A program made the translations under genes and the position numbers. DNA of 54,032 nucleotides from positions 1 to 54,032 of IMG/VR virus record IMGVR_UViG_3300049914_000058; one strand, 5' to 3'. Shown piece after piece: positions 5,091 through 36,070 of the stretch. This DNA comes from a virus (lineage: Duplodnaviria; Caudoviricetes). A model generated the notes under the pieces. It was not told where the DNA came from. It searched no databases and was given only the letters and a program-made list of their open reading frames with translations. Numbering within the stretch: position 1 is the stretch's first letter; every line of letters starts with the position of its first letter.

Positions 5091-5695
5091 ATATGACTGA
5101 AAAAGCCAAAAAACAGGTCAGAGAGCAAAAATCAGCCTTGCAGGATAAGGCACGATTGAAGAAGTCTGAACAGGCCATATCAAGCATACCCTTAAAATTA
5201 ACTGCTAAACAAGAGATGTTTTGTAATGAATACCTGATAGACTTAAACGCTACGCAAGCGGCAATAAGGGCAAAATATCCTAAAAAAACCGCTCGGCAAA
5301 TGGGAACTGAAAACCTGTCAAAACCTGTCATTCAAGATAGAATAAGTCAACTTCAAAGACAACTTCAAAAAGATTGTGATGTTACTCCTGCCGATGTGAT
5401 TAACGAACTCAAAAAGATAGGCTTTGCGAATATACAAGATTGTATTTCAGATGATAATGAGATTGTTGATATATCTAAAATACCAAAGGACAAGGCCGCT
5501 GCGATAGAATCGGTTCAGTCCGACATACGCCACGATGGGGGAAAATCGAAAGGATACACCGAAAAAGTAAAAGTGAAGTTTCATAGTAAGGTACAGGCTC
5601 TTGAGAACATTGGTAAACACCTCGGAATATTTGAGAAGGATAATAAACAGAAAAGTATTGCTCTGCCTGCGATAATTATAACGAGAAGGGCATAA
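5084..5695 (+). CDS. terS: Terminase small subunit
   Basis: LTAKQEMFCNEYLIDLNATQAAIRA-x-Y HTH motif and C-terminal K-x-ALE-x-IGKHLGIF; directly upstream of TerL. Confidence 0.93.
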   Translation: MVDMTEKAKKQVREQKSALQDKARLKKSEQAISSIPLKLTAKQEMFCNEYLIDLNATQAAIRAKYPKKTARQMGTENLSKPVIQDRISQLQRQLQKDCDVTPADVINELKKIGFANIQDCISDDNEIVDISKIPKDKAAAIESVQSDIRHDGGKSKGYTEKVKVKFHSKVQALENIGKHLGIFEKDNKQKSIALPAIIITRRA

Positions 5696-8145
5696 TGGAA
5701 TTTGGCGATAAACAATACGAGGCAATAGACATTTTGAACGACCCTGCTGTTGATGAATTACTATTAGGTGGCGCAAAAGGTGGTTCAAAAGCAAGTCCGT
5801 TAACAGCAATAGTTTATACTCCATTCGGCCCCAAAAAAATGGGTGATATACAAATAGGAGACCGAGTAAGTAATCCAGATGGGTCGATAGCAAAAGTAGT
5901 AGGAGTGTGGCCGCAAGGAATTAAAAAGATTGCTTGTGTTGTAATGGATGACGGGGCGAGTGTTCGTGTAAGCTGGGAGCATCTTTGGTTGTATAAAATT
6001 AGGGGTAAAACGAGATTTAGAAAATTGGCCGTCTCCGACAGACCAACGCAATATAAAATTGGAACAACTAAGCAATTATTTGATTTGGTTAAAAAAGGCG
6101 TGAGGATACAGATACCAATTACGCAGCCCGTTCAATTTACAATAGCTTCAAATAATCCAGAAATTACTTGGCCGCTTGAACCTTATACATTAGGCATACT
6201 TTTAGGTGATGGGCATATAGGTAACGGTTCAGTTACGATTACATCTGCCGACCCTTCTATTGTTGAAGGAATGGCCGTAAGAAGTATCAGCAGGAAAAGC
6301 AATAACTTGGCGTGTTCTTATCGTATGCCACTTGATATTCGCGACAAATGCAAAAGTCTGGGTTTGTGTGGTAAACGCTCGTGGGAGAAGTTTATTCCAT
6401 CACAATATAAAATTTGCACTCTGTCTATGCGACAGTCGTTAATGCAAGGATTGATGGATACTGATGGTAGCGCAGACAAAAGAGGGCATTCTTCTTACAC
6501 GACCACCAGTGAACAATTATCAAAAGATGTTCAGTGGTTGGCTTGGAGTTTAGGATACAAGGCAAATATAATAAGTAGGATACCAAAATATACATACAAG
6601 GGCATTAAGAAAGAAGGTCGTCTTGCTTATACTGTATATATCAAAGGCAATAGCCACGAACAGCTTTTTAGGTTGGAGCGAAAACAGAAACGGGCAGAAC
6701 AGGCATATTTAGGTAATGGCATCAATGGGGGAAGTGATAGGGTTAGGCATATTATTTCCATTACTCCTGATGGCAAAGAAGAAGCCCAGTGTATAACTGT
6801 GGACAATCCCAATGGGTTGTACATAACGGATGACTTTATCGTAACGCATAACAGTGTAACGGGCTGTTGGTTGCTATTTACGATGTGTTATGCCATCGCC
6901 AGAGAGTTTTGGCCTGATAAACCACCTAAAGAGCCTGTGCAGATAGCGTGGATGGGGCGTAAGATAGCCGCAGATTTCAGTAAGACCACACTTGAAACGT
7001 GGCGAAGAATCATACCGCCTGAGTATTATGAGATTAAAGGCAGGCCGGAGGAAATCGTAATTGCTGATAGAGTTAAGATAATCACCGGCGGCCTTGACAG
7101 CAGGGATGAAGTAGAAAAATTCAATTCAATGGAATTGGCCGTAGCGTTCTTAGACCAAGCCGAAGAAACAAGCCGAGAGGATGTTGCCTGTTTACGAGCT
7201 ACATTCCGACTTCACATCAACGGCAAACTCATAAAAGGCAAACTGATAATGAGTTGCAATCCTCGACAATGCTGGCTTAAAGAGGAATTTATACTCAATC
7301 CTAAACCTAACCAGCGGTTTCTTCAAATGCTTTATACGGATAATCCTTTCATTGACCATGATGATTATGCCAGAAGACTTGATACGGCTTATTCTTTTAG
7401 ACCTGCACTATTAAGAGCCTACAAAGAAGGCGACTGGAACGCCGTTGAAGACCCAGAGCAGATAATCAAGTCCGAATGGCTTAATCAAGTCAAGATAAGG
7501 CCCTACTATGACCCATTTATTAAGGAATATCTGGTTATTGACTGTGCAAGGTTTGGGGACGACAACACAATCATTTTGCGGATGAAAAACGCTGAAATAG
7601 CAGAAAAAGTTGTGATGCCGTACTGTGATACTACGCAGATAGAGTCTAAAGCCGCCCAGATGAGTTTCGCCAATGGTAATCTGCCTATCGTGGTCGAAAG
7701 TATCGGTGCAGACCTCGGAGCAGGCGTGGTTGACCATTTAAGGGGAGCGGGTAAGACTATATATGAGTTCTGCCCTAATGCCGCCGCTCCGCTTATGGAG
7801 GAAGAAAACTATGGTAATTTAAGGTGTTGGGCATGGGCTAATGCGGCCAAGAAGTTGGAAAAGGGTATTCTTGACGAAGTGCATAATGTTCATTTATGCA
7901 CACACAACATAGACGAAAGGACCATAACTCAATTATGCGCGATAAGATACCAGTATAAGAACGGTAAGTTATATGTGGAAGATAAGGCGGAGATTAAGAA
8001 ACCAAAGCGATTAGGTTGTTCTCCTGATGATGCCGATACTTATGTTATAGCTTTATGGGCTTACGACCAGATACCAGTACCATTTCCGAAAAGTGAACGA
8101 GAACAAAGGCTTGAAACCAAGAGAAAAGACCCGATGTTGATGTAA
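5695..8145 (+). CDS. terL: Terminase large subunit with intein (462-aa extein)
   Basis: Walker A GGAKGGSK|S split by the intein; Walker B-like AFLDQAEE; motif III MSCNP; RNase H-like nuclease 'IDCARFGDD' and 'SPDDAD'. Confidence 0.93.
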   Translation: MEFGDKQYEAIDILNDPAVDELLLGGAKGGSKASPLTAIVYTPFGPKKMGDIQIGDRVSNPDGSIAKVVGVWPQGIKKIACVVMDDGASVRVSWEHLWLYKIRGKTRFRKLAVSDRPTQYKIGTTKQLFDLVKKGVRIQIPITQPVQFTIASNNPEITWPLEPYTLGILLGDGHIGNGSVTITSADPSIVEGMAVRSISRKSNNLACSYRMPLDIRDKCKSLGLCGKRSWEKFIPSQYKICTLSMRQSLMQGLMDTDGSADKRGHSSYTTTSEQLSKDVQWLAWSLGYKANIISRIPKYTYKGIKKEGRLAYTVYIKGNSHEQLFRLERKQKRAEQAYLGNGINGGSDRVRHIISITPDGKEEAQCITVDNPNGLYITDDFIVTHNSVTGCWLLFTMCYAIAREFWPDKPPKEPVQIAWMGRKIAADFSKTTLETWRRIIPPEYYEIKGRPEEIVIADRVKIITGGLDSRDEVEKFNSMELAVAFLDQAEETSREDVACLRATFRLHINGKLIKGKLIMSCNPRQCWLKEEFILNPKPNQRFLQMLYTDNPFIDHDDYARRLDTAYSFRPALLRAYKEGDWNAVEDPEQIIKSEWLNQVKIRPYYDPFIKEYLVIDCARFGDDNTIILRMKNAEIAEKVVMPYCDTTQIESKAAQMSFANGNLPIVVESIGADLGAGVVDHLRGAGKTIYEFCPNAAAPLMEEENYGNLRCWAWANAAKKLEKGILDEVHNVHLCTHNIDERTITQLCAIRYQYKNGKLYVEDKAEIKKPKRLGCSPDDADTYVIALWAYDQIPVPFPKSEREQRLETKRKDPMLM
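5791..6852 (+). mobile_element. Class 3 (Ala-start) intein with LAGLIDADG homing endonuclease, 354 aa
   Basis: Starts ASPLTAIVYTP-x-G; block B EHLW; LAGLIDADG helices YTLGILLGDG and LMQGLMDTDG; block F AQCITV; ends VTHN followed by Ser+1. Confidence 0.9.
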
Positions 8146-9608: not shown

Positions 9609-11801
9609 TTGAATACCAAAGAGCAGCAGGACACAATCGATATAGTCAAAGAGTTTAGAGACACTGGCACTGCCTCGACTGACCTGTTCGACCGTATGCG
9701 TAAAGCCGAGGATAACAAAGTCGGCAAACAATGGGACGAGGCTGTTAAGGCCGCCAACAAAGCTAAAGGCAAGTTCTGTCTGACTATCCCGTTGATTAGG
9801 GCGATTATTAAGCAGATAAGTGGTGTAGAGATAGAGAATCCCCGTGATATTACCATAAGGAACGCTCGCGGTGGTACAGCGACGTTAGCCAAAATTCTCA
9901 CTTCATTGACAAAGCAGGTAACTTCTTCGGAAATGACCCGTTTTGAACTATCGCAGGAATTTGAGGCTGGCGTAACTACGGGTCAAGGTGTTATTGGTAT
10001 ATTTGTTGATAAGATGAAAGACCCTAAGCACGCGAATCTCGACATACGCAAACTCAACGAGCATAACGTATTATTCGACCCGACTTGTCTATCGTATAAT
10101 ATCAACGACCCTAAAAATGGTTGCAAATATGTTATATATGAAGAACCAGTTGATAAAGAATACCTCGAACTCGAATATCCCGATAAGAAAGGCGACCTTT
10201 CGGCCAATAGTGCAGCATCTTCTTCGTTTTGGGGTAATCTTATTGGCAATGTGAAAGGTTTTATAAAAGCGGAAACAGGAATAAGTGTAGGTAAGACAGA
10301 ATCCTCTTTTGGTTCGTTAGATGTAGATGAAATCAAAAAGAATAGGTATATCGTCAATCATACTTGGTGGAGAAAACCGAAGAAATGCGTAATGTGGTAT
10401 GATTCTCGTAAATCTGAAATGGATGCAAAACTTCTAATTAAAGATGAGGATATCAAGGCGGCGAAGAAAGGCACAAAAGACGAAGAAGAAGCGGCTAAAC
10501 TTCGCAAAGAAGGTGTTATCAGTGAACTGACAGTGGCCAATGCTAACTTGACAGACCCGAAGGTTAAGGAATTTGTCAATAAGGCAGGAACTCCAGTATT
10601 TGAGATATTTGATGTTATAATCAATGTAATGCACCATACAATCAGGGTGGATAATATATTTCTCGAAGACAGGATTGACGAACTTAACGGCGTTGACGCA
10701 TTCCCGATAGTTCCATTTTGGGCTTATTTTGATAATGGTTATAAGGCAGGTGTAGCCGAAGATTTAATCGGTACGCAGCAAGAACTTAATTACGCTCATA
10801 GTCAAAAACTTAACATCATAAAGAACATAGCCAATTCAGGGTTAATAATAGCGGGAGGGGCAAATACAGACCTTTACAAACAATGGCTCGAATCGCACGC
10901 CGGAGAAGACGGTATAATTCTCGATAAGAGTAAAGCTGGTGGCAGCATCGAAATTATCCAACCCCGCCAAGTTGCTATGGCTCACGCCGAAATGGAACAA
11001 AGTTGCATAATGAATATGCGACTTATAAGCAACCAAAGGACAGAGATACCTACGCAGGATACCGAACAGTTATCGGGTAAGGCTATTTATCTCAAACAGA
11101 AAGCCTCTCTGCAAGGTGCTGGTTCTATATTCCTAAACTGGAATTATTCGTTTACAATGTTTGCCAATTTACTTGTAAGTATCATAAGGCATAATGATAT
11201 ATTCTCTAAGGATGAGATTCTTGAGATTGTCGAGAAAGAGGAACTTATCGACCCGCAATTCTTTGCAGAGGCGAGGCAGTTAGTTATATCAACTATGCAG
11301 CAACAGGGTATTGAAATGCCCGCTGCACCAGAGTCGCCAAATATGCTTGCTCTTAAAATGGTTGCCCCTGAACTGCAAATGTCGATGATGTCTAATCTTA
11401 AGAAGGAAATGGACAATTACCAGGCAGGACAGGAATGGTTGGATGCAATGGCGTCTGAAATGGCAGAGAAAATGCTCCTTGATGAGATTCACAACATTCG
11501 TAAAGGTGAATATAATTGTGTCGTAACTTTATCTCCGGCCAGTGAGACTATGCGGGCTATAAAGATGGCCGAACTGTTTGAATTAAATAAAGTTTTGAGA
11601 GAATCGGGTGATATACCTATTGATGGCGAAATGCTTATCGAGGCAACGGATATCGACAAGAAAGAACAAATAATCGAAAAGAGAAAAGAGAAACTCAAAC
11701 AGATGTCCCTTGCCGCATCTCAAGTACAGTTGAATGTAGCCAAAGCGAAACAGATAGAAGGCAATACTAAAACCGAACCCCAACGAATAGGTATGGTGTA
11801 A
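9609..11801 (+). CDS. Portal protein, P22-like
   Basis: 730 aa after TerL; 'G-x-QWD', 'FPIVPF', 'G-x-AEDL-x-G-x-Q-x-ELN-x-x-HSQ' and 'SGKAI...Q' segments typical of P22-type portals. Confidence 0.85.
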   Translation: MNTKEQQDTIDIVKEFRDTGTASTDLFDRMRKAEDNKVGKQWDEAVKAANKAKGKFCLTIPLIRAIIKQISGVEIENPRDITIRNARGGTATLAKILTSLTKQVTSSEMTRFELSQEFEAGVTTGQGVIGIFVDKMKDPKHANLDIRKLNEHNVLFDPTCLSYNINDPKNGCKYVIYEEPVDKEYLELEYPDKKGDLSANSAASSSFWGNLIGNVKGFIKAETGISVGKTESSFGSLDVDEIKKNRYIVNHTWWRKPKKCVMWYDSRKSEMDAKLLIKDEDIKAAKKGTKDEEEAAKLRKEGVISELTVANANLTDPKVKEFVNKAGTPVFEIFDVIINVMHHTIRVDNIFLEDRIDELNGVDAFPIVPFWAYFDNGYKAGVAEDLIGTQQELNYAHSQKLNIIKNIANSGLIIAGGANTDLYKQWLESHAGEDGIILDKSKAGGSIEIIQPRQVAMAHAEMEQSCIMNMRLISNQRTEIPTQDTEQLSGKAIYLKQKASLQGAGSIFLNWNYSFTMFANLLVSIIRHNDIFSKDEILEIVEKEELIDPQFFAEARQLVISTMQQQGIEMPAAPESPNMLALKMVAPELQMSMMSNLKKEMDNYQAGQEWLDAMASEMAEKMLLDEIHNIRKGEYNCVVTLSPASETMRAIKMAELFELNKVLRESGDIPIDGEMLIEATDIDKKEQIIEKRKEKLKQMSLAASQVQLNVAKAKQIEGNTKTEPQRIGMV

Positions 11802-14789: not shown

Positions 14790-14974
14790 TGGAATGTAAA
14801 GATTGTAAATTTTGCGAAATGTCTATCGGTAACAAAGTGGGGTGGTGCAAACGATTTCCGCCCGTGTTTAACACTAATAACTTTACTGGCAAAGCCGAAG
14901 ACTGTTTGTATGCGTGGCAAAGTCCAAGAATTGGTGCAAAAGATTGGTGTGGTGAATTTGAAGCAAAAATTTAG
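14789..14974 (+). CDS. Small Cys-rich phage protein
   Basis: C-x-x-C-x-F...G-x-C-x-RFPP...DWCGEF. Confidence 0.7.
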   Translation: MECKDCKFCEMSIGNKVGWCKRFPPVFNTNNFTGKAEDCLYAWQSPRIGAKDWCGEFEAKI

Positions 14975-15029
14975 TGCTTAAAAGTTAATAGAAAAAGCTG
15001 AAAGAAGTTCTATTACGAAAGGAAATAGT

Positions 15030-15437
15030 ATGTTATTTATCGGCAAAAATAAGAAGTTGCAGGAAATTATTGATAGTTTTTTGGTTCAAAATACCAAAAA
15101 GCTGGAAGAGGTTATCAGGAATGTTTTGTCAGATGATACCAAAGTGCTTACATTGAACGCAGCAATTCGGAAACTCAAAGACGAACTTGCTGACTTGCAA
15201 ACCACTAAAAAGCAGGAACAAAAAGAAGAAAAACTTAACATTGAACACCAAAAATCCGAATTAACCTTGAAAGATGAATACAAAAACAAAGAAATGGTAT
15301 TACAACAGGAGTATTTCAATAAGGCTATCAACCAATTAAAAGAACATGGTAATAAATTACAGGAAATCTACGGTCAGATACTTACACGATTACCTAACCT
15401 TAATGCTTCTTTGGAAATCAAGAAAAGAGTTAAATAA
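15030..15437 (+). CDS. Coiled-coil hypothetical protein
   Basis: AAAGGA RBS; K/E/Q-rich helix. Confidence 0.65.
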   Translation: MLFIGKNKKLQEIIDSFLVQNTKKLEEVIRNVLSDDTKVLTLNAAIRKLKDELADLQTTKKQEQKEEKLNIEHQKSELTLKDEYKNKEMVLQQEYFNKAINQLKEHGNKLQEIYGQILTRLPNLNASLEIKKRVK

Positions 15438-15721
15438 TGTTATTACCTTTGAATGAATCAGAATTGACTCAAATGGCTAACATTGCCAGACGGGCTAATG
15501 ATGGTTGTAATCCACCGGACGTTTACCAAATGCTTATGCTTAGCAAATTAAGGACAAGGGCGGCTGGAGTAATTAGTGCAATGAAGGAAGAACAAAGGGT
15601 AGGATTTATTGCAAGAATACAACAACAAATGATAGAACAATTTATGCCGCACAAAGATATTGATGATAATTTTTACTTGAGATTAAAAACGGAAATTGAC
15701 GACTGGCTTGAATTAGAATAG
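15437..15721 (+). CDS. Hypothetical protein, paralog of 15833..16066
   Basis: Shares the LLPL...A-x-R-x-NDG-x-x-P...Y-x-ML-x-L-x-x-LR-x-RA domain. Confidence 0.65.
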   Translation: MLLPLNESELTQMANIARRANDGCNPPDVYQMLMLSKLRTRAAGVISAMKEEQRVGFIARIQQQMIEQFMPHKDIDDNFYLRLKTEIDDWLELE

Positions 15722-15770
15722 TTTTAGCTCTTTGTAATTAAATAACGTAGTAACGGAAAAAAGTTGGAAG

Positions 15771-15815
15771 AAACTCCCGTATTGGACTTTTTGAGTCTAT
15801 GCGGGAGTTTTTTTA
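15771..15815 (+). terminator. Rho-independent terminator
   Basis: AAACTCCCGTAT...ATGCGGGAGTTT stem followed by a T-run. Confidence 0.7.
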
Positions 15816-15832
15816 TTGAAAGGACAAAAGCA

Positions 15833-16066
15833 ATGCCAAAAAAGGGAAAAACGAATGAAGTAGTAGCAACGGAAGTAACAACCGAAGTTACTGAAGCAGT
15901 AACCGAGGCTCCAAAATTGTTACCTTTGAGTGATTTGGAGTTGGTCGAAATAGTTCACCTCGCAAAACGCAGCAATGACGGCACTCATCCGCCATCTCCT
16001 TATGAAATGCTGTGTTTGGGAAGATTGCGAGTACGAGCAAAGGAAAACAATCAAAAAGTAGTGTAG
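15833..16066 (+). CDS. Hypothetical protein, paralog of 15437..15721
   Basis: AAAGGA RBS; T/E/V-rich N-terminus plus the shared domain. Confidence 0.65.
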   Translation: MPKKGKTNEVVATEVTTEVTEAVTEAPKLLPLSDLELVEIVHLAKRSNDGTHPPSPYEMLCLGRLRVRAKENNQKVV

Positions 16067-16075
16067 TTTTTTACA

Positions 16076-16215
16076 TACGTTTTGATAGCAACGGAAAAAA
16101 ACTATCTCTTAACGGTAAGAATTACCGGCGTTACGCTTTGATGGAAGCTGAAAAAATCCATCCCTTTACGATAAGGTTTATCGGTTTACGGCTGCTCAGC
16201 CGGTTAAAAAGGAGT
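16076..16215 (+). promoter_or_regulatory. Tandem array of five H-type RNA pseudoknots in the scaffold-gene leader
   Basis: Crossing stems listed under findings; two duplicated ~56-nt units differ by compensatory pairs; the last pseudoknot pairs with the RBS. Confidence 0.7.
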
Positions 16216-16226
16216 TGTGTATTGTT

Positions 16227-16982
16227 ATGGAAAATTTAGAAACAGAAAACAAAGGATTGAACGGATTGGAACAACCAACAACAGAACAACAGGGAAACGA
16301 GACTTCTGAACTGGATACCCCGGTAGTGGAAGTATCGGCAGTAGAGACTCCCGAAAAATCGGCTGAGATTCCGGTTATTAAAGAACCCGAATTTGCTCCT
16401 ATGCACGTTGTTAAGGAACTGCGTACAGACAGAGCAGAATTAAGGGAACAACTTGCTAAAAAGGATGGCATTATTGAAACTTTGCAACGAGAAAAAACAA
16501 CTCAAGTTGCCGTACAGCAGAAATCTCCTATGCAAATTGCGGCTGAAGACCAAGGTGTGGATGTAACACAACCTGATTGGCGAAAGCAAGTTGTTGTGGA
16601 TGGCGAACTTGAAGAACAACAGTATTTTTGGCGTGAAAACCAAAAAGTTCTGCAATCAAGAGTCGAATCCACAGCAGATGCCGCACAACAACATAGTGAT
16701 TTCAAGGAAATCTGCCGGCAGGGTGAACAACATTTGACTCTATTAGAAGTCAATGAACTTAGAAAATGCACTTCTAATTTTGGTCAGAAGGCATACGAAC
16801 TATGTACCAAAGCTCTGTTACGGGCAGGCATTAAAACTGTTCCTGAAGTTCCGAAGGTTATACCAACAGCTCAATCCGCAACTAACAAGGGAAGTGAGCT
16901 GCCTAAAAAGCCAATAATCCCTACACAGGACGAGATACTTTCGGGTATCAGTCCTGCTATTCAGAAGATTATGACTTTTTAG
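16227..16982 (+). CDS. Probable capsid scaffolding protein
   Basis: Acidic low-complexity N-terminus, 'P....KELR..R..L' coiled coil, immediately upstream of the major capsid gene. Confidence 0.7.
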   Translation: MENLETENKGLNGLEQPTTEQQGNETSELDTPVVEVSAVETPEKSAEIPVIKEPEFAPMHVVKELRTDRAELREQLAKKDGIIETLQREKTTQVAVQQKSPMQIAAEDQGVDVTQPDWRKQVVVDGELEEQQYFWRENQKVLQSRVESTADAAQQHSDFKEICRQGEQHLTLLEVNELRKCTSNFGQKAYELCTKALLRAGIKTVPEVPKVIPTAQSATNKGSELPKKPIIPTQDEILSGISPAIQKIMTF

Positions 16983-16987
16983 GATAA

Positions 16988-17025
16988 TAGACAGGCTCGC
17001 TCCTTTAAAAGAAAGGAGCGGTCTA
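16988..17025 (+). promoter_or_regulatory. RBS-sequestering hairpin upstream of the major capsid gene
   Basis: CGCTCCTTT (16998-17006) pairs with AAAGGAGCG (17012-17020); TAGAC/GTCTA extends the stem to the ATG. Confidence 0.65.
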
Positions 17026-18276
17026 ATGACTGCTACAAGTTTTGCATTTGGCGACCCAAGAGCGCAATCGGTATGGTCGCCGCAAGTATATGCTTATGCG
17101 CTACAAAACATCTTCTTTACGAAGATGATGGGTAATGATGGTAATGCCGCTGTATTTGTGAATACCGACCTTACCGTAAAAAAAGGCGGAACTGTTGTTG
17201 TTGAGGAAGATGACCCGTTGACAAACAACGGTGTTGGTGATGATGGTAATACGACCACCACTGGCGAAGGACAACTTACAGTAAGGAATATGTCTGTAAC
17301 TGTTCACGAAAGAGCTAATGCCGTTGTATCAAACGGTAAATTGTCTGAGCAACTGACAGCTACCAATATCCGAGAGAAGGCCAGAAAACAACTTGGCCTA
17401 TGGCTCGGAGAAGTGTTGGAGAAAGACATTCTTACCGCCGCTTATGGCGGATATAACGAGAACTCCGGTGGTTCCACTATTGATACTGTTAATGACGCTG
17501 CCCCTGCGGGTTATCCGTCAACTAACCGTATATTTTACGGTGGTCAGAACGCTGCCGGTACTATTGGCAACAGTGGTGCGAGTTATGGCACAGATGCGCT
17601 TTTGACGGCTGGTGGTGTAACGACAGCTAATGTACTTTGCGGTACGTTGATGTTAGAAGCGATTAAGCGGCGTTGTATGGCCGCAACACCGAGGTTTAGA
17701 CCTGTAACGGTTTATAACCTTAACGGTATTAACGATGACGATGTAAGGTCAGGTAAGAATCTTGGCGAAGCAATCGCAAAGGTTCTTATTGTTCTGTTAC
17801 ATCCTCTCCAGATTAAAGCCATAAAAGCTGAAACTGGAGCTACTGGCTGGGCTGCTATGACTGCCGCTGCACAGGTAAGAGGAAACCAAAACCCGATATT
17901 CCAAGGCGCATCGTTCTATTGGGATGGAATGCTCTGTTTTGAGTATGACCGAGTTCCTACAAGAACGGGAGCTGGTGCAACTGCAATAACGGAAGGTTTC
18001 CATCTTAATACCGCAACGCCAAAGATATGTGATGATGTCTGCGCTAACGGCAAGACCGTCGCAAGGGCGATGTTCCTCGGCGGACAGGCTCTATCATTCT
18101 GCTGGGCGCAAAAGCCGGAATGGTCTGAGGATATGGTTGATAACAACAAACCGAAGGTCAAGTGCGATATGCTCTACGGAGTAAAGAGGACTATTTTCAA
18201 CGCACACGGTGGAACTACCCCTGATGAGACTGAGGCTATTTACTGCCTTGATACCCAAGTTGTTGTTGACGCTTAA
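17026..18276 (+). CDS. Major capsid protein, N4-gp56/DUF4043-like
   Basis: 'DL-x-x-KKG-x-TV...L...GV..D....GE-x-L', 'R..AR..L..W', 'RG-x-x-NPIF-x-G....WDG', 'RA-x-FLG-x-QA...W'; position after the scaffold. Confidence 0.85.
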   Translation: MTATSFAFGDPRAQSVWSPQVYAYALQNIFFTKMMGNDGNAAVFVNTDLTVKKGGTVVVEEDDPLTNNGVGDDGNTTTTGEGQLTVRNMSVTVHERANAVVSNGKLSEQLTATNIREKARKQLGLWLGEVLEKDILTAAYGGYNENSGGSTIDTVNDAAPAGYPSTNRIFYGGQNAAGTIGNSGASYGTDALLTAGGVTTANVLCGTLMLEAIKRRCMAATPRFRPVTVYNLNGINDDDVRSGKNLGEAIAKVLIVLLHPLQIKAIKAETGATGWAAMTAAAQVRGNQNPIFQGASFYWDGMLCFEYDRVPTRTGAGATAITEGFHLNTATPKICDDVCANGKTVARAMFLGGQALSFCWAQKPEWSEDMVDNNKPKVKCDMLYGVKRTIFNAHGGTTPDETEAIYCLDTQVVVDA

Positions 18277-18307: not shown

Positions 18308-18342
18308 GGGGGAGCGGCAATATGAAGTCGCTCCTCTATCTT
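18308..18342 (+). terminator. Hairpin (weak terminator/attenuator) after the major capsid gene
   Basis: GGGGGAGCGGC / GTCGCTCCTC stem with a poor U-tract, followed by TTGAAAAGTAAA. Confidence 0.5.
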
Positions 18343-18361
18343 GAAAAGTAAAGGACAGCAA

Positions 18362-21300
18362 ATGAGAAAAATTATAGTCTTTATAGCCTTGCTGGTAATG
18401 ATTTCTCCGGCATTGGCTCTTGATATGGGGTATTTACACCATAATTTACAGATTGTAGATGAACTTGACCGACCGAGAACTGATATAAACTCAGTTACAA
18501 TTCGTACAGCAGGTTCTACTGTTACCCAGACTATCTACAAAGGCAGGACTTCGGATACGAATATGGTTCAGCCAATGACCAAGTACACCACGAACACAAC
18601 ACTTGATAGAACAAATGGTACGGCAAAATGGTATGGTGCAGACCTATGGGATTTTTTAATCACACTCGATAGTGGGATAAATTACACCAATAACGGGCAC
18701 ATGTCAATGAACGCATCGTCTGGTCGTGTGATATTCCCATCATACATAGGTGCATCAGCCTCACTTTCTCTTACAGACGCAAATACCTTAACGTTTGGTA
18801 CTGGTGCGGACTGGGTTATGAGAAGTGCTACGGCTAAACTCTTGGAGTTCCGGCCCGCTCTTGATGATTCATCAATAAGAGTAGGTTTATCTGATGGCAC
18901 AAAGTCATCAGACCTTGATTGGTACACTGGTTCTGGTACAGGGATATTCCTCGATGAGAGTGCAAATACCCTTGCGATAACAGGCGTTGCAACAACATTT
19001 AGTTCATTAGTTACAGGAACAGCAGGACTTACTATTACTGGCGCTGCGGTAAATCTGAATGCAAGTTCAAATTTCGCCACAAACATCGGAACAGGTACTA
19101 CGACTACAGCAGTAACTATCGGCGGGACTACTACACAAACAGTAAATGTTGGTGCGAGTGGTACTACGACTGGTGTAAAAACCGTTACACTTGGTTCTAA
19201 CAGTGATGCTTCTATAACTAATCTTGTAGGAGGCACTGCCGGTATAAACATCGGCGTTGGAACTGTTACCACGCCTGTTACCGTAGGCGGTTCAAGTGGC
19301 GCACAGACTATCGCCGTTGGCGATGGTGCTGGTGTAAAAACGGTGTCTTTGGGAAGTTCTACAGGTGCATCTTCTACTGCTATTAAAGCTGGTACTGGCA
19401 AGATGACAATAATATCTTCAAGTACGGCAACCGATGGTTTGATTATTCAGGCGAATGGTGCGGCTGGTGGTATTGACATAATCTCCCTTGAAGACATTGA
19501 TATTTCAACTACAGGTGCGGCAGGTGAAGATATTAGTCTTACGAATACAGGCGGTTCAATAAACCTGTCCGCTACTGAAAATGCTACCGGTGCGATTACC
19601 TTGCTTTCTAATGGCGGTGTTTTAGAAACTATTACAGTTACCAATACGCAGGGTACAAGTGCGGATGCTATTACTTTGGCGGCTACGGCAGGTGGTGTCA
19701 ATATAGATGCTGCCGCTGCTTTGGATGTTACTATTGATGGCGGGCAGGTACTTCTTACGTCTAAACAAGATGTCGCATCTGCGATTTCTCTTTATACAGG
19801 TATTGGTTCTTCCGAAACAATAGCAATTAAGAACAATGCAGGTACTGGTACTGATTCGATTAACATAGATTCTACCGTAGGCGGTTTTGACCTCGACACT
19901 GTTAAAGATATAGCTCTTACCTGTGCTTCAGGAGCAGTCGCTGGCGAGGATATTCTTATTACCCAAACTGGTGCTGTCGATGCGTCTATTATACTTACCG
20001 CAGCAGGGACCGGTTTGGATGCAATACAGTTATCAGCTACAGCCGGAACTATTGATATTCAGGGTGATAAATTAGCAGTTGATTCTACGGACGATACGAT
20101 ATTGACTGTAACTTCATCTACAGATGGTGAGGATTTACTTCTCGTTCAATCCGGCGTTAATAATTCGAGTATCACTTTAACTGCCGCAGGTAATGGTACA
20201 GACGCTATTGGTCTTCAGGCTGGCGCAGGTGGTATTGATATTGACGGTGGGGCTGGCGGTGATATTGCAATTACCTCAACTGCGAAATCTGTTGTAGTAA
20301 CTGCTACTGAAGCTGTTGCTGATGCTATCGCTCTTGTTGCGACTACAGGTGCAGGTGGAATTACAGAAACATCTGGAAGTGGTGGTATCAACTTAAATGC
20401 AAGTGTTAGTCAACCAGTTAATATCGCTTCAGGCACATCGACTGGAACACTAACTATTGGCGATGGTGCAGTTACGCAGGCCGTAACTATCAATGCCGGT
20501 GCAGGTGCCAAAACAACTACACTTGGCAGTACGAATACTACTTCTGCCACTACTATCAATTTTGGTTCAGGCAACCTCGCATTAACTGGCGCTGGTGTAA
20601 GTGCCGACTTTACGGCAGATTGCGACTTATTCAGTATTGACGGTACTGGTTTGTCGAATATCACTGTTACAAGTAATGCTGGTTCAGAGAATTTTACAGT
20701 AGCTCTTGCCGGTGCAACGGCTTCAAGTTTAATTTTAAGTTCGACAGGAACAGGCGCGGACGCATTACAGATAACGACATCTGCTGGCGGTATCGACATT
20801 ACAAACGGCGGTGCTGCAAGTGGCGAGGATATTGATATAGCGGGACAACTTGCTTCTGTTAATCTCACTTCCGCAGAGGCGGTAACTGATGCGATAACTT
20901 TAAATGCTTCTGCTGGTGGTATTACACTAATAGCCGGTAGTGGTGTACTCGTTAATGACCCGATTACTCTCGGCAACGCTATTGGCGATACCGTAACTGT
21001 TACGGGTAAAATTGCAGGTGCGAGTCCGTTAAGTTTTGACGGTTCAACGGCCAATACAGCATATACGACATTAGCGGTTGCCGATGTAGGTAGTACCATT
21101 ACGGTAACAATGCCGAATAGTACAAGTGCTTTAATTGGTTCGACCTTAACTACGAATAACGCTGATGCTGCCAATTCTATTTGGGGCGGAACGAATAGTC
21201 TTATATTTGAAGGCTCAACCGCAAACGATTTTGAGACTAATTTTAAGTCTGTAGATGCGGCGATAGACTCCAACATTATTCTGCCTGCTCCAGCTACTGC

Positions 21301-21961
21301 TACTGATTTTTATGTTGTTTTATCAACATTAGTCAATAACAAACCTGATTTGGCAAATGGCGTATGGCTCGCATCTAACGGAATAGTGTACGAAGGTTCG
21401 GGTGCGGATGAATACGAAACCACTATATCTGCCACTAATCCTACTGCTGATAGGGCGATTGCTTATCCTGATGCAGCGGGAACTGTTTTACTTACAGGTA
21501 GAACAGGTCAGCAATTTACCCAAAGTATTGTTGGTGCGAAATTGGGTTCTACTGGTTCAGGTTGGGTATTGGCGGCTGCCGATGATGTTTTGTTGGCAAC
21601 TTTACCAGCCTCGCAAACTACTGAAAAATTGATAATTCCGGTAACCGTGCCGTTAAAAGTAGGTTCTATAATTACTGGGTTTTCAATAAATGGTCAGATA
21701 GAAAGTGGAGGTAATGCTGTTGATGTTAGTGCAACTATGAACAAAATGACTGCTGCTGCCACTGATTTTACTACCGTTGCGATAGGCACAATAACTGTTG
21801 CACAAAAAACAGCAGATTACAAAATTGCCGATGCCAATTCAACTATTACGGCTGATACGGTTGCGGCAGACGAAACATTCTTTGTTATTGTTACAGGAAA
21901 TACTACTGCTAATACAGATGTAGCGATTGGTGGTATTACGGTAACTGTAACAGAACCATAA
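18362..21961 (+). CDS. Large T/G/A/S-rich fibre/adhesin-like protein with N-terminal signal peptide
   Basis: MRKIIVFIALLVMISPALA-L signal; repeated 'DAI-x-L-x-A-x-AGGI-x-I' and 'KTVTLGS' beta-repeats; 'FEG-x-T-x-ND-x-ET...PTADR-x-I-x-x-PDA-x-GTV' fibre-like motifs. Confidence 0.75.
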   Translation: MRKIIVFIALLVMISPALALDMGYLHHNLQIVDELDRPRTDINSVTIRTAGSTVTQTIYKGRTSDTNMVQPMTKYTTNTTLDRTNGTAKWYGADLWDFLITLDSGINYTNNGHMSMNASSGRVIFPSYIGASASLSLTDANTLTFGTGADWVMRSATAKLLEFRPALDDSSIRVGLSDGTKSSDLDWYTGSGTGIFLDESANTLAITGVATTFSSLVTGTAGLTITGAAVNLNASSNFATNIGTGTTTTAVTIGGTTTQTVNVGASGTTTGVKTVTLGSNSDASITNLVGGTAGINIGVGTVTTPVTVGGSSGAQTIAVGDGAGVKTVSLGSSTGASSTAIKAGTGKMTIISSSTATDGLIIQANGAAGGIDIISLEDIDISTTGAAGEDISLTNTGGSINLSATENATGAITLLSNGGVLETITVTNTQGTSADAITLAATAGGVNIDAAAALDVTIDGGQVLLTSKQDVASAISLYTGIGSSETIAIKNNAGTGTDSINIDSTVGGFDLDTVKDIALTCASGAVAGEDILITQTGAVDASIILTAAGTGLDAIQLSATAGTIDIQGDKLAVDSTDDTILTVTSSTDGEDLLLVQSGVNNSSITLTAAGNGTDAIGLQAGAGGIDIDGGAGGDIAITSTAKSVVVTATEAVADAIALVATTGAGGITETSGSGGINLNASVSQPVNIASGTSTGTLTIGDGAVTQAVTINAGAGAKTTTLGSTNTTSATTINFGSGNLALTGAGVSADFTADCDLFSIDGTGLSNITVTSNAGSENFTVALAGATASSLILSSTGTGADALQITTSAGGIDITNGGAASGEDIDIAGQLASVNLTSAEAVTDAITLNASAGGITLIAGSGVLVNDPITLGNAIGDTVTVTGKIAGASPLSFDGSTANTAYTTLAVADVGSTITVTMPNSTSALIGSTLTTNNADAANSIWGGTNSLIFEGSTANDFETNFKSVDAAIDSNIILPAPATATDFYVVLSTLVNNKPDLANGVWLASNGIVYEGSGADEYETTISATNPTADRAIAYPDAAGTVLLTGRTGQQFTQSIVGAKLGSTGSGWVLAAADDVLLATLPASQTTEKLIIPVTVPLKVGSIITGFSINGQIESGGNAVDVSATMNKMTAAATDFTTVAIGTITVAQKTADYKIADANSTITADTVAADETFFVIVTGNTTANTDVAIGGITVTVTEP

Positions 21962-35377: not shown

Positions 35378-35867
35378 ATAGTGTTTCTTACCGCTGGACG
35401 GTATCAGGTATAATTGGCGAAGCCTTAAAGTGCTATGCAACCAAAATTGGCGTTAAATAGTATCTCATAGAATATACACAAATCCATAGTTGCTATCGAA
35501 ATGGCCTTTTGTGATAGGCAGATTCTCCCAAGAGGCCGCGTTGCCAACACGACCTACACGGTCGCTACGAAGCCTGCCAAGCCCTTTGTTTGCCTTTTAA
35601 ATCGATGAACGTTCTGCCGTTGGGGTAATTTCACCCAGACGCGCCATATTGCAAAAACACACCCAGTTTTTAAACAAATAACAAGGAAATGTTCGTTTTT
35701 AAGTTAAAAACATTAACGCTGTATAACCCCGCGCAAAATGAAACATATTAAATGGAATAATTCACTTTTCGCAAAGAGGCGAAATGCGCAAATAGGCCAA
35801 AGGGAAAAGAGCGATAATACAAGACTTTATGGAAAAATAAATCTTGTTTAAAATAGCAATTTTTCTA

Positions 35868-35895
35868 TTGACAGCTAAAGTTTACTTGCTATACT
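35868..35895 (+). promoter_or_regulatory. Strong sigma70-type promoter for the early arm
   Basis: TTGACA-16-TATACT with an upstream AT-rich tract. Confidence 0.7.
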
Positions 35896-35935
35896 TGCCG
35901 ATGTATTGATTAACCAATTTTTAGGAAATAGACCA

Positions 35936-36070
35936 ATGGCTAACATATATGTTGATAATGACACAAAAGTAAATCTTGACAAACTCATCGAACGAGAATG
36001 TAGGTCAATAAGCGATGAAATAAAATTTCTTATTGATAATAGGTTGGCAGAATTGGAGAAGGTAAAATGA
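35936..36070 (+). CDS. Ribbon-helix-helix (Arc/CopG-like) regulator, 44 aa (missing from the ORF track)
   Basis: MANIYVDNDTKVNLDKLIERECRSISDEIKFLIDNRLAELEKVK: alternating beta strand, helix A, 'RS-x-S-x-x-I-x-x-LI' helix B; AGGA RBS; first substantial ORF after the promoter. Confidence 0.7.
   Translation: MANIYVDNDTKVNLDKLIERECRSISDEIKFLIDNRLAELEKVK

Follow-up and report, generated by a model that had tools for sequence, protein, structure and literature searches.

A 160-nt gap ahead of the putative scaffolding-protein gene in the virus record IMGVR_UViG_3300049914_000058 (Duplodnaviria; Caudoviricetes) encodes a conserved, structured RNA with an architecture of five tiled H-type pseudoknots (PK1–PK5). 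The window analysed here is that complete record, 54,032 bp long, and the gap, which we call the leader, lies on its + strand immediately before the scaffold and capsid genes. The leader is a real structured RNA whose fold, position and strand follow from the comparisons given below, and it constitutes a new RNA family: it is uncatalogued, and its row of five tiled knots is unusual. A preliminary description made from the DNA letters had drawn five back-to-back pseudoknots at this place; reading of the sequence and an independent enumeration of pseudoknots both put all ten stems exactly where it had placed them (Table 1).

The enumerator was limited to H-type knots with stems (S1 and S2) of at least 4 bp and loops of 0–3 nt (L1), 0–2 nt (L2) and 2–10 nt (L3). 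With Watson–Crick pairs only, the 160-nt gap holds four non-overlapping knots, whereas among 1000 dinucleotide shuffles of the gap 720 held none, 251 one, 26 two, 3 three and 0 four. With G–U pairs allowed the gap holds five, a number reached by 7 of the 1000 shuffles. In a genome-wide scan of 160-nt segments (2694 per strand), at least four knots occur on the + strand in the two segments that cover the leader and nowhere else, and on the − strand a single AT-rich place (853–1012) reaches four. The other knot-dense segments, at 35721–35960, 853–1012 and 14941–15100, were set aside as AT-rich chance matches such as AAAA/UUUU. Nested minimum-free-energy folding, a method uninformative for pseudoknots, gives the leader the same stability as its shuffles (z = −0.03), and such elements therefore slip past routine scans. 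Consecutive knots are separated by linkers of 0, 7, 0 and 5 nt. Classical steric rules for H-type pseudoknots set the loop lengths that permit both stems at once, and the loops of the leader knots (L1 of 1–2 nt, L3 of 3–9 nt) are compatible with simultaneous stems under these rules; we infer that the two stems of each knot form together. A search for RNA runs carrying 15700–17400 gave none; DNA contigs from four runs over 15950–16330 either carry the same sequence or leave it uncovered, and gave no new variants.

The first four knots are arranged as two copies of one unit, in which a larger knot abuts a compact one. The copies form a direct repeat (16076–16128 and 16132–16184) with a spacing of 56 nt and an identity of 75%. 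Of the 53 aligned positions 13 differ, and eight of these make up four compensatory pairs, with one pair broken; 13 randomly placed substitutions would give at least four compensatory pairs with P = 1.35e-4. The preliminary description had counted three such swaps, to which a U–A to C–G change in S1 of PK1/PK3 has to be added as the fourth. It had also treated the duplication of about 56 nt as part of the element; the duplication is present in the window as described, but among the relatives it is restricted to a close clade of five members.

Relatives were gathered through the capsid protein, a GenBank phage DNA search with 15700–17100 having returned no match and a scan of IMG/VR with the scaffold protein no relative. 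As a single query this protein retrieved 4 loci from IMG/VR. A capsid alignment retrieved 32 loci from metagenomes, 21 from IMG/VR and a single contig binned in a Planctomycetota metagenome-assembled genome (MAG). These searches yielded 44 sources including the window, 3 of which lack the upstream region at a contig end, and removal of exact duplicates left 31 distinct leaders, three truncated at the 5′ end and 28 full-length. On the capsid tree the window and four loci (L002, L008, L003 and L006) form the close clade (support 99); among the other 24 rows, 23 fall into a weakly supported group (84) and L056 stands apart on a long branch. A scan of IMG/VR with the leader pattern returned eight contigs, all of them already among the relatives found through the capsid. 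The MAG contig (L059, 6.4 kb) was the sole match among 185,579 species genomes, and its binning is a weak hint of a Planctomycetota host. The cultured phages that come nearest, among them Ochrobactrum POI1126 and Klebsiella SopranoGao, have capsid proteins about 23% identical to that of the window; their gene order is different and they have no comparable gap.

Covariation supports the crossing stems at two evolutionary depths. For the close clade, which comprises five sequences only, we scored a plain MAFFT alignment with the window structure of PK1–PK4, PK3 S1 being moved by one column to the register used by the relatives. In this alignment 96.4% of 169 cells are paired, against 34–58% when the 3′ partners are slid by 1–3 columns, and both sides have changed in 14 of 34 pairs. 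PK1 S2 has four of five pairs changed on both sides and 96% of cells paired (versions GAUAG/CUAUC, GCUGA/UCAGC, GAGAAG/CUUCUC and AUGGA/UCCAU). Each stem of PK2 has one covarying pair; S1 is 100% paired and S2 85%, its fourth pair being unpaired in three of the five sequences. PK1 S1 (CGUU/AACG) is invariant in all five leaders and so draws its support only through its paralogue. A U-run of 6–8 (a T-run in the DNA) precedes PK1 in all five.

At the greater depth we built a covariance model, R1, from 29 leaders and three nested helices only (PK3 S2, PK4 S2 and PK5 S1). Searched against 39 sources, it matched once in every one of the 31 that contain the region and did not match the 8 that lack it, matches to the building sequences being expected by construction. 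R1 scores 71.8 bits on the window (E = 1.2e-17), with no second match there, and 95.4 bits on the leader of the MAG contig, which lay outside the building set. Across the 31 sources the element is found once per genome, with its knots in the order PK3–PK4–PK5, directly 5′ of the scaffold start.

A family alignment, A4 (30 distinct rows, 23 pairs), extends the pairing test to PK3–PK5; three of the five helices scored on it had also served to fit it, and 92.3% of its cells are paired, against 31–55% with slid partners. Both sides have changed in 15 of the 23 pairs, and doubly changed cells number 86, compared with 22.8 ± 4.4 in shuffles and with none of 500 shuffles as high. In PK4 S2 every cell is paired (100%) and all four pairs covary; PK4 S1, which crosses it and is absent from R1, is 88% paired with three of four pairs covarying. 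For PK3, S2 is 92.3% paired in the 30 distinct leaders and six of its eight pairs covary, while the 2-bp core of S1, also absent from R1, occurs as CG (11), UA (11) and AU (1). PK5 S1 is 94.6% paired and mostly invariant, with one G–C to A–U swap, and A-rich L3 loops are conserved across the relatives. Mapped onto the capsid tree, the pair states changed up to nine times per pair (seven times for PK3 S1 and seven for the last pair of PK4 S2), which argues that the swaps represent many events rather than one inherited split; these counts carry the caveats of recombination and of tree uncertainty. G–U cells outnumber A–C cells by 26 to 9 in the family, favouring RNA pairing on the + strand; in the five-sequence set the two are equal (4 and 4).

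The knots are also found in individual sequences, independently of any alignment. A strict detector that allows only Watson–Crick pairs in stems of 4 + 4 bp was run on the 28 full leaders and reports two to four tiled knots in 25 of them; the means for shuffles are near 0.45. In L003, L004 and L037 the detector reports one knot each, which is within chance; the stems of these leaders use G–U pairs or a 3-bp S1. We rejected a conserved open reading frame (ORF) across the leader, as a leader peptide or an N-terminal extension: 18 of the 28 leaders have a + frame free of stops, but when PK5 is taken as the reference the phase divides 6/6/7 among the three frames, and the leader alignment contains single-base indels. 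The earlier proposals that the stems are under selection for pairing, and that homologous leaders keep the crossing stems, are thus borne out both in the close clade and in the 30 distinct leaders.

The last knot is tied to the start of the scaffold gene. Every one of the 31 leaders keeps a Shine–Dalgarno sequence, (A)AGGAG or GGAG, and has a hairpin, usually CGGCU-loop-AGCCG, 20–35 nt 5′ of the start codon. Pairing of the PK5 loop to the segment between hairpin and start codon reaches a summed score of 312 over the 31 leaders, against 262 ± 9.6 in shuffles, none of 500 scoring as high. Most leaders pair ACUC or GCUC with the GAGU of AAGGAGU. Two close relatives (L002 and L008, UGCUCUG/CAGAGUG) and a third (L003, GGCUUGA/UCAAGUC) use another, 7-bp partner just 5′ of the Shine–Dalgarno sequence, which indicates that pairing is kept rather than sequence, and in L056 stem 2 is CUUG/CAAG. 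The 3′ strand of stem 2 lies in the Shine–Dalgarno sequence in 27 of 31 leaders. The preliminary description had placed the last knot on the ribosome-binding site (RBS) and proposed that scaffold loading on the leader closes this site. Involvement of the site holds throughout, with stem 2 on or beside the Shine–Dalgarno sequence in 31 of 31 leaders; closure as a universal feature does not, given the four exceptions. The automatic parse of PK5 mis-set S1 in L018, L024, L037 and L053, which have a U–G closing pair. As drawn for the window, PK5 has zero-length L1 and L2 and a 4-nt loop, compared with loops of 5–9 nt in the relatives, and it is sterically strained unless the closing U–A pair of S1 opens. 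Between PK4 and PK5, L024 carries an extra hairpin (GGGGAAACC...GGUUUCUC, about 590–620) and L006 an inserted U-run (about 1605–1625), so that this junction tolerates spacers.

Outside the close clade, 23 distinct full-length leaders keep PK3–PK5 and have a different 5′ half. Their first 60–80 nt (L004, L011–L056) form another covarying H-type knot, PK_A, for example GCUGU-A-CGGC-ACAGU-GGCAAG-GCCG, which in some leaders has a hairpin in L3. An automatic search picked this knot in about 20 of the 23; its scores add up to 468, compared with 322 ± 30 for 60 shuffles, of which the highest reached 388. Two hairpins, read by eye, follow the knot. PK3 in these leaders has a longer S2 that includes UUU/AAA, together with a U-rich L1. 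A short motif, A-A/C-A-W-Y-U-U-A/U-G-C, precedes the 5′ knot in this sister clade, whether the sequence there is coding or not. In the clade of the window, a duplicate of the PK3–PK4 unit has taken the place of that 5′ half.

A further structure lies downstream of the scaffold gene. At all 31 loci, per-sequence folds place a hairpin that buries a Shine–Dalgarno sequence 3′ of the scaffold stop codon, and its arms covary, with 16 distinct arm pairs (GCUCCU/AGGAGC, GCCCCU/AGGGGC, GUCCCU/AGGGAC and GCUCCC/GGGAGC among others). Typically it begins 6 nt past the stop and ends 4–6 nt ahead of the start codon. RNAalifold found no consensus on the scaffold–capsid gap, in which MAFFT had misaligned the loops. 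At six loci (L018, L026, L033, L044, L051 and L056), the hairpin serves an inserted small ORF rather than the capsid gene; the extra ORF and strongly folded sequence lie there between the hairpin and the capsid gene. The arrangement is likely to be the classical layout of translational coupling. If coupling holds, the scaffold RBS is the single ribosome entry point for both head proteins, and the leader probably governs both.

Long ORFs in the window lie almost all on the + strand, and the leader opens a long structural module encoded on that strand (Table 1). A series of small ORFs separates the portal gene from the 77-aa ORF that ends where the leader begins. Searches of Pfam and PHROG gave this 77-aa protein no family match; relatives of it are encoded in L006, L002, L008 and L003 (tblastn E from 6e-11 to 9e-9), and in about 17 of 31 loci the ORF ending just before the leader carries, as read by eye, a similar C-terminal motif (...PSP.E..R...L..R...). 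It is a candidate RNA-binding partner of the leader. The 251-aa protein encoded behind the leader drew nothing from Pfam, PHROG or PDB sequence searches, either as a single sequence or as a 31-member alignment. Its AlphaFold2 model (pLDDT 76.4) consists of a disordered acidic N-terminus followed by helices only; Foldseek matches in BFVD are weak (E from 3e-3) and mostly named scaffolding protein, and a PDB structure search with the model returned nothing. The preliminary description had called the gene a scaffold outright. From position and predicted fold this is a reasonable assignment, plausible rather than proven and made without a sequence-family match.

Table 1. Positions of the leader, its pseudoknots and the surrounding genes in the window
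Feature	Positions	Strand	Details
Large terminase	5695–8145		
Portal	9609–11801		
77-aa ORF	15833–16066	+	TAG stop 16064–16066; small-protein family with basic C-terminus
Gap (leader)	16067–16226	+	160 nt between 77-aa ORF and putative scaffold gene
U-rich single-stranded spacer	16067–16077	+	UUUUUUACAUA; precedes PK1
PK1, H-type	16078–16106	+	S1 CGTT 16078–81 / AACG 16090–93; S2 GATAG 16084–88 / CTATC 16102–06; L1 UU; L2 C; L3 GAAAAAAA 16094–16101
PK2, compact H-type, abuts PK1	16107–16127	+	S1 TCTT 16107–10 / AAGA 16117–20; S2 CGGT 16113–16 / ACCG 16124–27; L1 AA; L3 AUU
PK3, PK1 paralogue	16135–16162	+	S1 GCTT 16135–38 / AAGC 16145–48; S2 GATGG 16140–44 / CCATC 16158–62; L3 UGAAAAAAU
PK4, PK2 paralogue, abuts PK3	16163–16183	+	S1 CCTT 16163–66 / AAGG 16173–76; S2 CGAT 16169–72 / ATCG 16180–83; L3 UUU
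PK5	16189–16215	+	S1 CGGCT 16189–93 / AGCCG 16198–16202; S2 GCTC 16194–97 / GAGT 16212–15, one G–U; L3 A-rich stretch 16203–16211
Shine–Dalgarno sequence of putative scaffold gene	16209–16214	+	AAGGAG, 12 nt 5′ of ATG 16227
Putative scaffolding protein, 251 aa	16227–16982	+	Assigned from position and predicted fold
Hairpin at capsid gene	16993–17024	+	3′ arm is the capsid gene's Shine–Dalgarno sequence; begins 10 nt past scaffold stop, ends 1 nt short of capsid ATG
Major capsid protein, 416 aa	17026–18276	+	phrog_334 E 1.4e-50; PF13252 E 2.9e-30

Some further features of the window were seen in passing. A strong hairpin followed by UUUUUU at 15768–15813, 5′ of the 77-aa ORF, resembles an intrinsic terminator; it surfaced solely as a chance alignment to mir-186 in a relaxed Rfam search. 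The 1206-aa ORF immediately 3′ of the capsid gene (18341–21961) is without a Pfam or PHROG match. A near-consensus sigma-70-type promoter (TTGACA-16 nt-TATACT, 35868–35895) sits in the long AT-rich gap 35378–35905, which separates the structural module from the block of genes that follows; none was found in 16067–16226. ARAGORN found no tRNA or tmRNA in the window.

For the function of the leader we favour, with a probability of roughly 45%, cis-acting control of translation initiation at the scaffold RBS, exerted with a trans-acting binder. The gap would be transcribed as the 5′ leader of the scaffold–capsid messenger and would fold as a near gap-free row, in which a large knot with an A-rich loop and a 21-nt mini knot occur twice and are followed by the fifth knot. 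This last knot would end on or beside the scaffold Shine–Dalgarno sequence, which the rigid array would present or half-mask. A trans-acting protein bound to the repeated, similar knot surfaces could then stabilise the weak last stem and lower initiation. Such a binder is likelier than constitutive masking because stem 2 of PK5 is weak, and one that is multivalent or cooperative would be well served by a series of similar knots; candidates are the scaffold, the small basic upstream protein and a host factor. A ribosome terminating on the scaffold gene would open the hairpin on the capsid side, and the leader would in this way set the output of both head proteins.

In a more specific version, which is possible but doubtful, the array acts as a multivalent sensor of assembly state. 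Unassembled scaffold, or the small basic upstream protein, would load along the knots, lock PK5 onto the Shine–Dalgarno sequence and throttle both head proteins via the coupling hairpin. A twist on this version is equally possible, namely that the knot stack docks the 30S subunit directly, in the manner of an internal ribosome entry site. Head assembly requires scaffold and capsid protein in large, balanced amounts, and in phage P22 genetics the scaffold reportedly limits its own synthesis post-transcriptionally; we know of no RNA target that has been defined for that autoregulation. Autoregulation of the scaffold through the present leader is a conjecture.

Several observations weigh against control of initiation through a bound leader. 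The putative scaffold has no recognisable RNA-binding domain, and its N-terminus is acidic. Stem 2 of PK5 in the window has only 4 bp, one of them G–U, and requires the closing pair of S1 to open; alone, it could hardly compete with a 30S subunit on a strong AAGGAG. In 4 of 31 leaders (L002, L008, L003 and L056), stem 2 lies just upstream of or partly on the Shine–Dalgarno sequence and leaves the core GGAG uncovered. PK1 S1 is constant in the five close leaders and PK5 S1 is nearly invariant, which leaves their pairing resting on fewer swaps, and the fit of A4 to three of the five helices scored on it qualifies the family-wide figures. Further, the 5′ half is exchanged for other folded modules in the sister clade, and a generic physical role, such as that of a stabiliser, accounts for this no less well than a specific operator does.

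That role, as a 5′ stabiliser or processing barrier, is unlikely by our estimate but far from negligible, and the roles considered here are compatible with one another. The messenger would be cut, or would start, in the U/A-rich stretch before PK1, and the compact knot stack would leave the 5′ end without a single-stranded stretch, block the entry and scanning of RNase E that depend on such an end, or else a 5′–3′ exonuclease, and make the heavily used scaffold–capsid messenger long-lived. A barrier would account for a leader whose 5′ boundary is a stop codon, or else a terminator hairpin and T-run, leaving no space for a promoter (and no promoter-like site occurs in 16067–16226), for inter-knot linkers of 0–7 nt, and for the replacement of the 5′ half by PK_A and two hairpins in 23 leaders, in which foldedness is kept over sequence. 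There is a precedent in the T4 gene 32 mRNA, which joins a 5′ pseudoknot leader with RNase E-dependent control of decay (PMC3014915). A barrier leaves unexplained why the last knot is tied to the Shine–Dalgarno sequence in 31 of 31 leaders, and why PK5 S1 and its loop are nearly invariant. There is no known case of a simple H-type knot stopping an exonuclease in the manner of the ring-like exonuclease-resistant RNAs (xrRNAs). An opposite effect on initiation is improbable: as a translational enhancer or standby platform, the knots, the U-rich tract and the A-rich loops would recruit ribosomal protein S1 or the 30S subunit, deliver it to the adjacent Shine–Dalgarno sequence and thereby raise initiation on the late messenger in greatest demand. 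The U-run before PK1 in all five close-clade leaders and the conserved A-rich L3 loops would fit such a platform, as would the very high output that this gene pair presumably needs. Its model is the tisB +42 mRNA, which encodes a toxin and in which standby translation dependent on S1 and 30S needs a 5′ pseudoknot and a single-stranded region; the one knot is 100 nt away from the RBS, which is sequestered (PMC7708055). The present leader has an array of knots beside a strong, mostly open Shine–Dalgarno sequence. A strong and weakly masked site makes a standby platform seem superfluous, and its partial pairing in most leaders suggests damping rather than boosting.

Two further explanations were weighed. 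It is very improbable that the element works at the level of DNA or transcription, as protein-binding inverted repeats or as a put-like antiterminator RNA. Its place in front of a long series of structural genes on the same strand would suit such an element, and in L003, L006, L022, L030 and L036 a terminator-like hairpin and T-run stand immediately 5′ of the leader, so that polymerase must read through to reach it. The excess of G–U (26) over A–C (9), however, fits RNA pairing on the + strand and not protein half-sites, and covariation in both crossing stems is unexpected for DNA sites; a put-like element should act on downstream terminators, whereas the conserved link here is to the Shine–Dalgarno sequence, and no Rfam antitermination family was matched. 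Hardly any weight falls on an array of riboswitches for a small molecule or ion, built from mini pseudoknots like preQ1-I. The resemblance of PK1, PK3 and PK5 to preQ1-I lies in P1, a short L1, P2, an A-rich L3 and a 3′ strand of P2 at the Shine–Dalgarno sequence. Against this stand the absence of an Rfam match, both in the gap at E up to 10 and in 20 relatives at the gathering score, L1 and L2 loops of 0–2 nt that leave no pocket, conserved nucleotides that lie in stems and A/U runs rather than at junctions, and the oddity of a head-assembly gene as target.

Comparison with known systems leaves the leader on its own. The preliminary description knew of no family with this layout, and Rfam 15 agrees: at the gathering score, neither the window nor any of 20 relatives matches a family; within 16067–16226 there is none at E up to 10 either, the two listed matches falling outside the gap and being chance-like. 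A full-text literature search found no description of a tandem-pseudoknot leader of phage head genes. By analogy, the leader appears functionally most like the pseudoknot translational operators (T4 gene 32, rpsO and the preQ1-I geometry), and it fails the defining features of each.

T4 gp32 is an autogenous repressor of translation that acts through a pseudoknot in its leader, the gene 32 mRNA combines operator and stability functions, and rpsO/S15 is named as a further pseudoknot operator (PMC3014915). The gene 32 operators of T4, T2 and RB69 share with the present leader an H-type pseudoknot of two coaxial short stems in a phage mRNA 5′ leader, 5′ of the RBS of a stoichiometrically needed protein (PMC3014915). 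Theirs is a single pseudoknot some 67 nt upstream, and between it and the RBS runs an A+U-rich tract with UUAA(A) repeats, unstructured, along which gp32 spreads (PMC3014915), whereas the present leader is tiled with knots. The regulated products differ as well, being a single-stranded-DNA-binding protein for gene 32 and here a putative scaffold with no match to a nucleic-acid-binding family, and there is no sequence relation. The likeness of PK5 to preQ1-I (RF00522) and rpsO is one of geometry only: a 5-bp P1, an L1 of 0–1 nt, a 4-bp P2 that runs into the Shine–Dalgarno sequence and an A-rich L3 of 8–9 nt. In such a layout, initiation would be lowered by any ligand or protein that makes P2 more stable. 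It differs in matching no Rfam family, in loops too short for a ligand pocket and in the four further knots on its 5′ side.

Rows of pseudoknots have other precedents. The upstream pseudoknot domain of tobamovirus 3′ untranslated regions (UTRs) and PK2–PK4 of tmRNA have at least three small H-type knots in succession, probably in a quasi-continuous stack; the tobamovirus array lies in the 3′ UTR near the tRNA-like end and the other inside tmRNA, whereas ours is in the 5′ leader of a DNA-phage mRNA. Beyond these two, we know of no parallel to an uninterrupted row of five H-type knots, and of none in a prokaryotic or phage 5′ leader. Type III antitoxin RNAs of the ToxI kind are near-identical tandem pseudoknot repeats next to a toxin endoribonuclease gene. 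We considered a ToxI-like antitoxin array and rejected it: the leader has two units, whose identity is no more than 75% and which the sister clade lacks, and its neighbours are an ORF of no known family and the scaffold gene, no search aimed at toxins having been made.

The leader adds a family that both standard nested folding and Rfam miss. It places a well-supported RNA structure exactly where a target of scaffold autoregulation would lie and makes that question directly testable. Were the array to act as a sensor of assembly state, scaffold autoregulation would have its first defined RNA operator, and a continuous stack of five pseudoknots would be seen for the first time as a prokaryotic 5′ leader.

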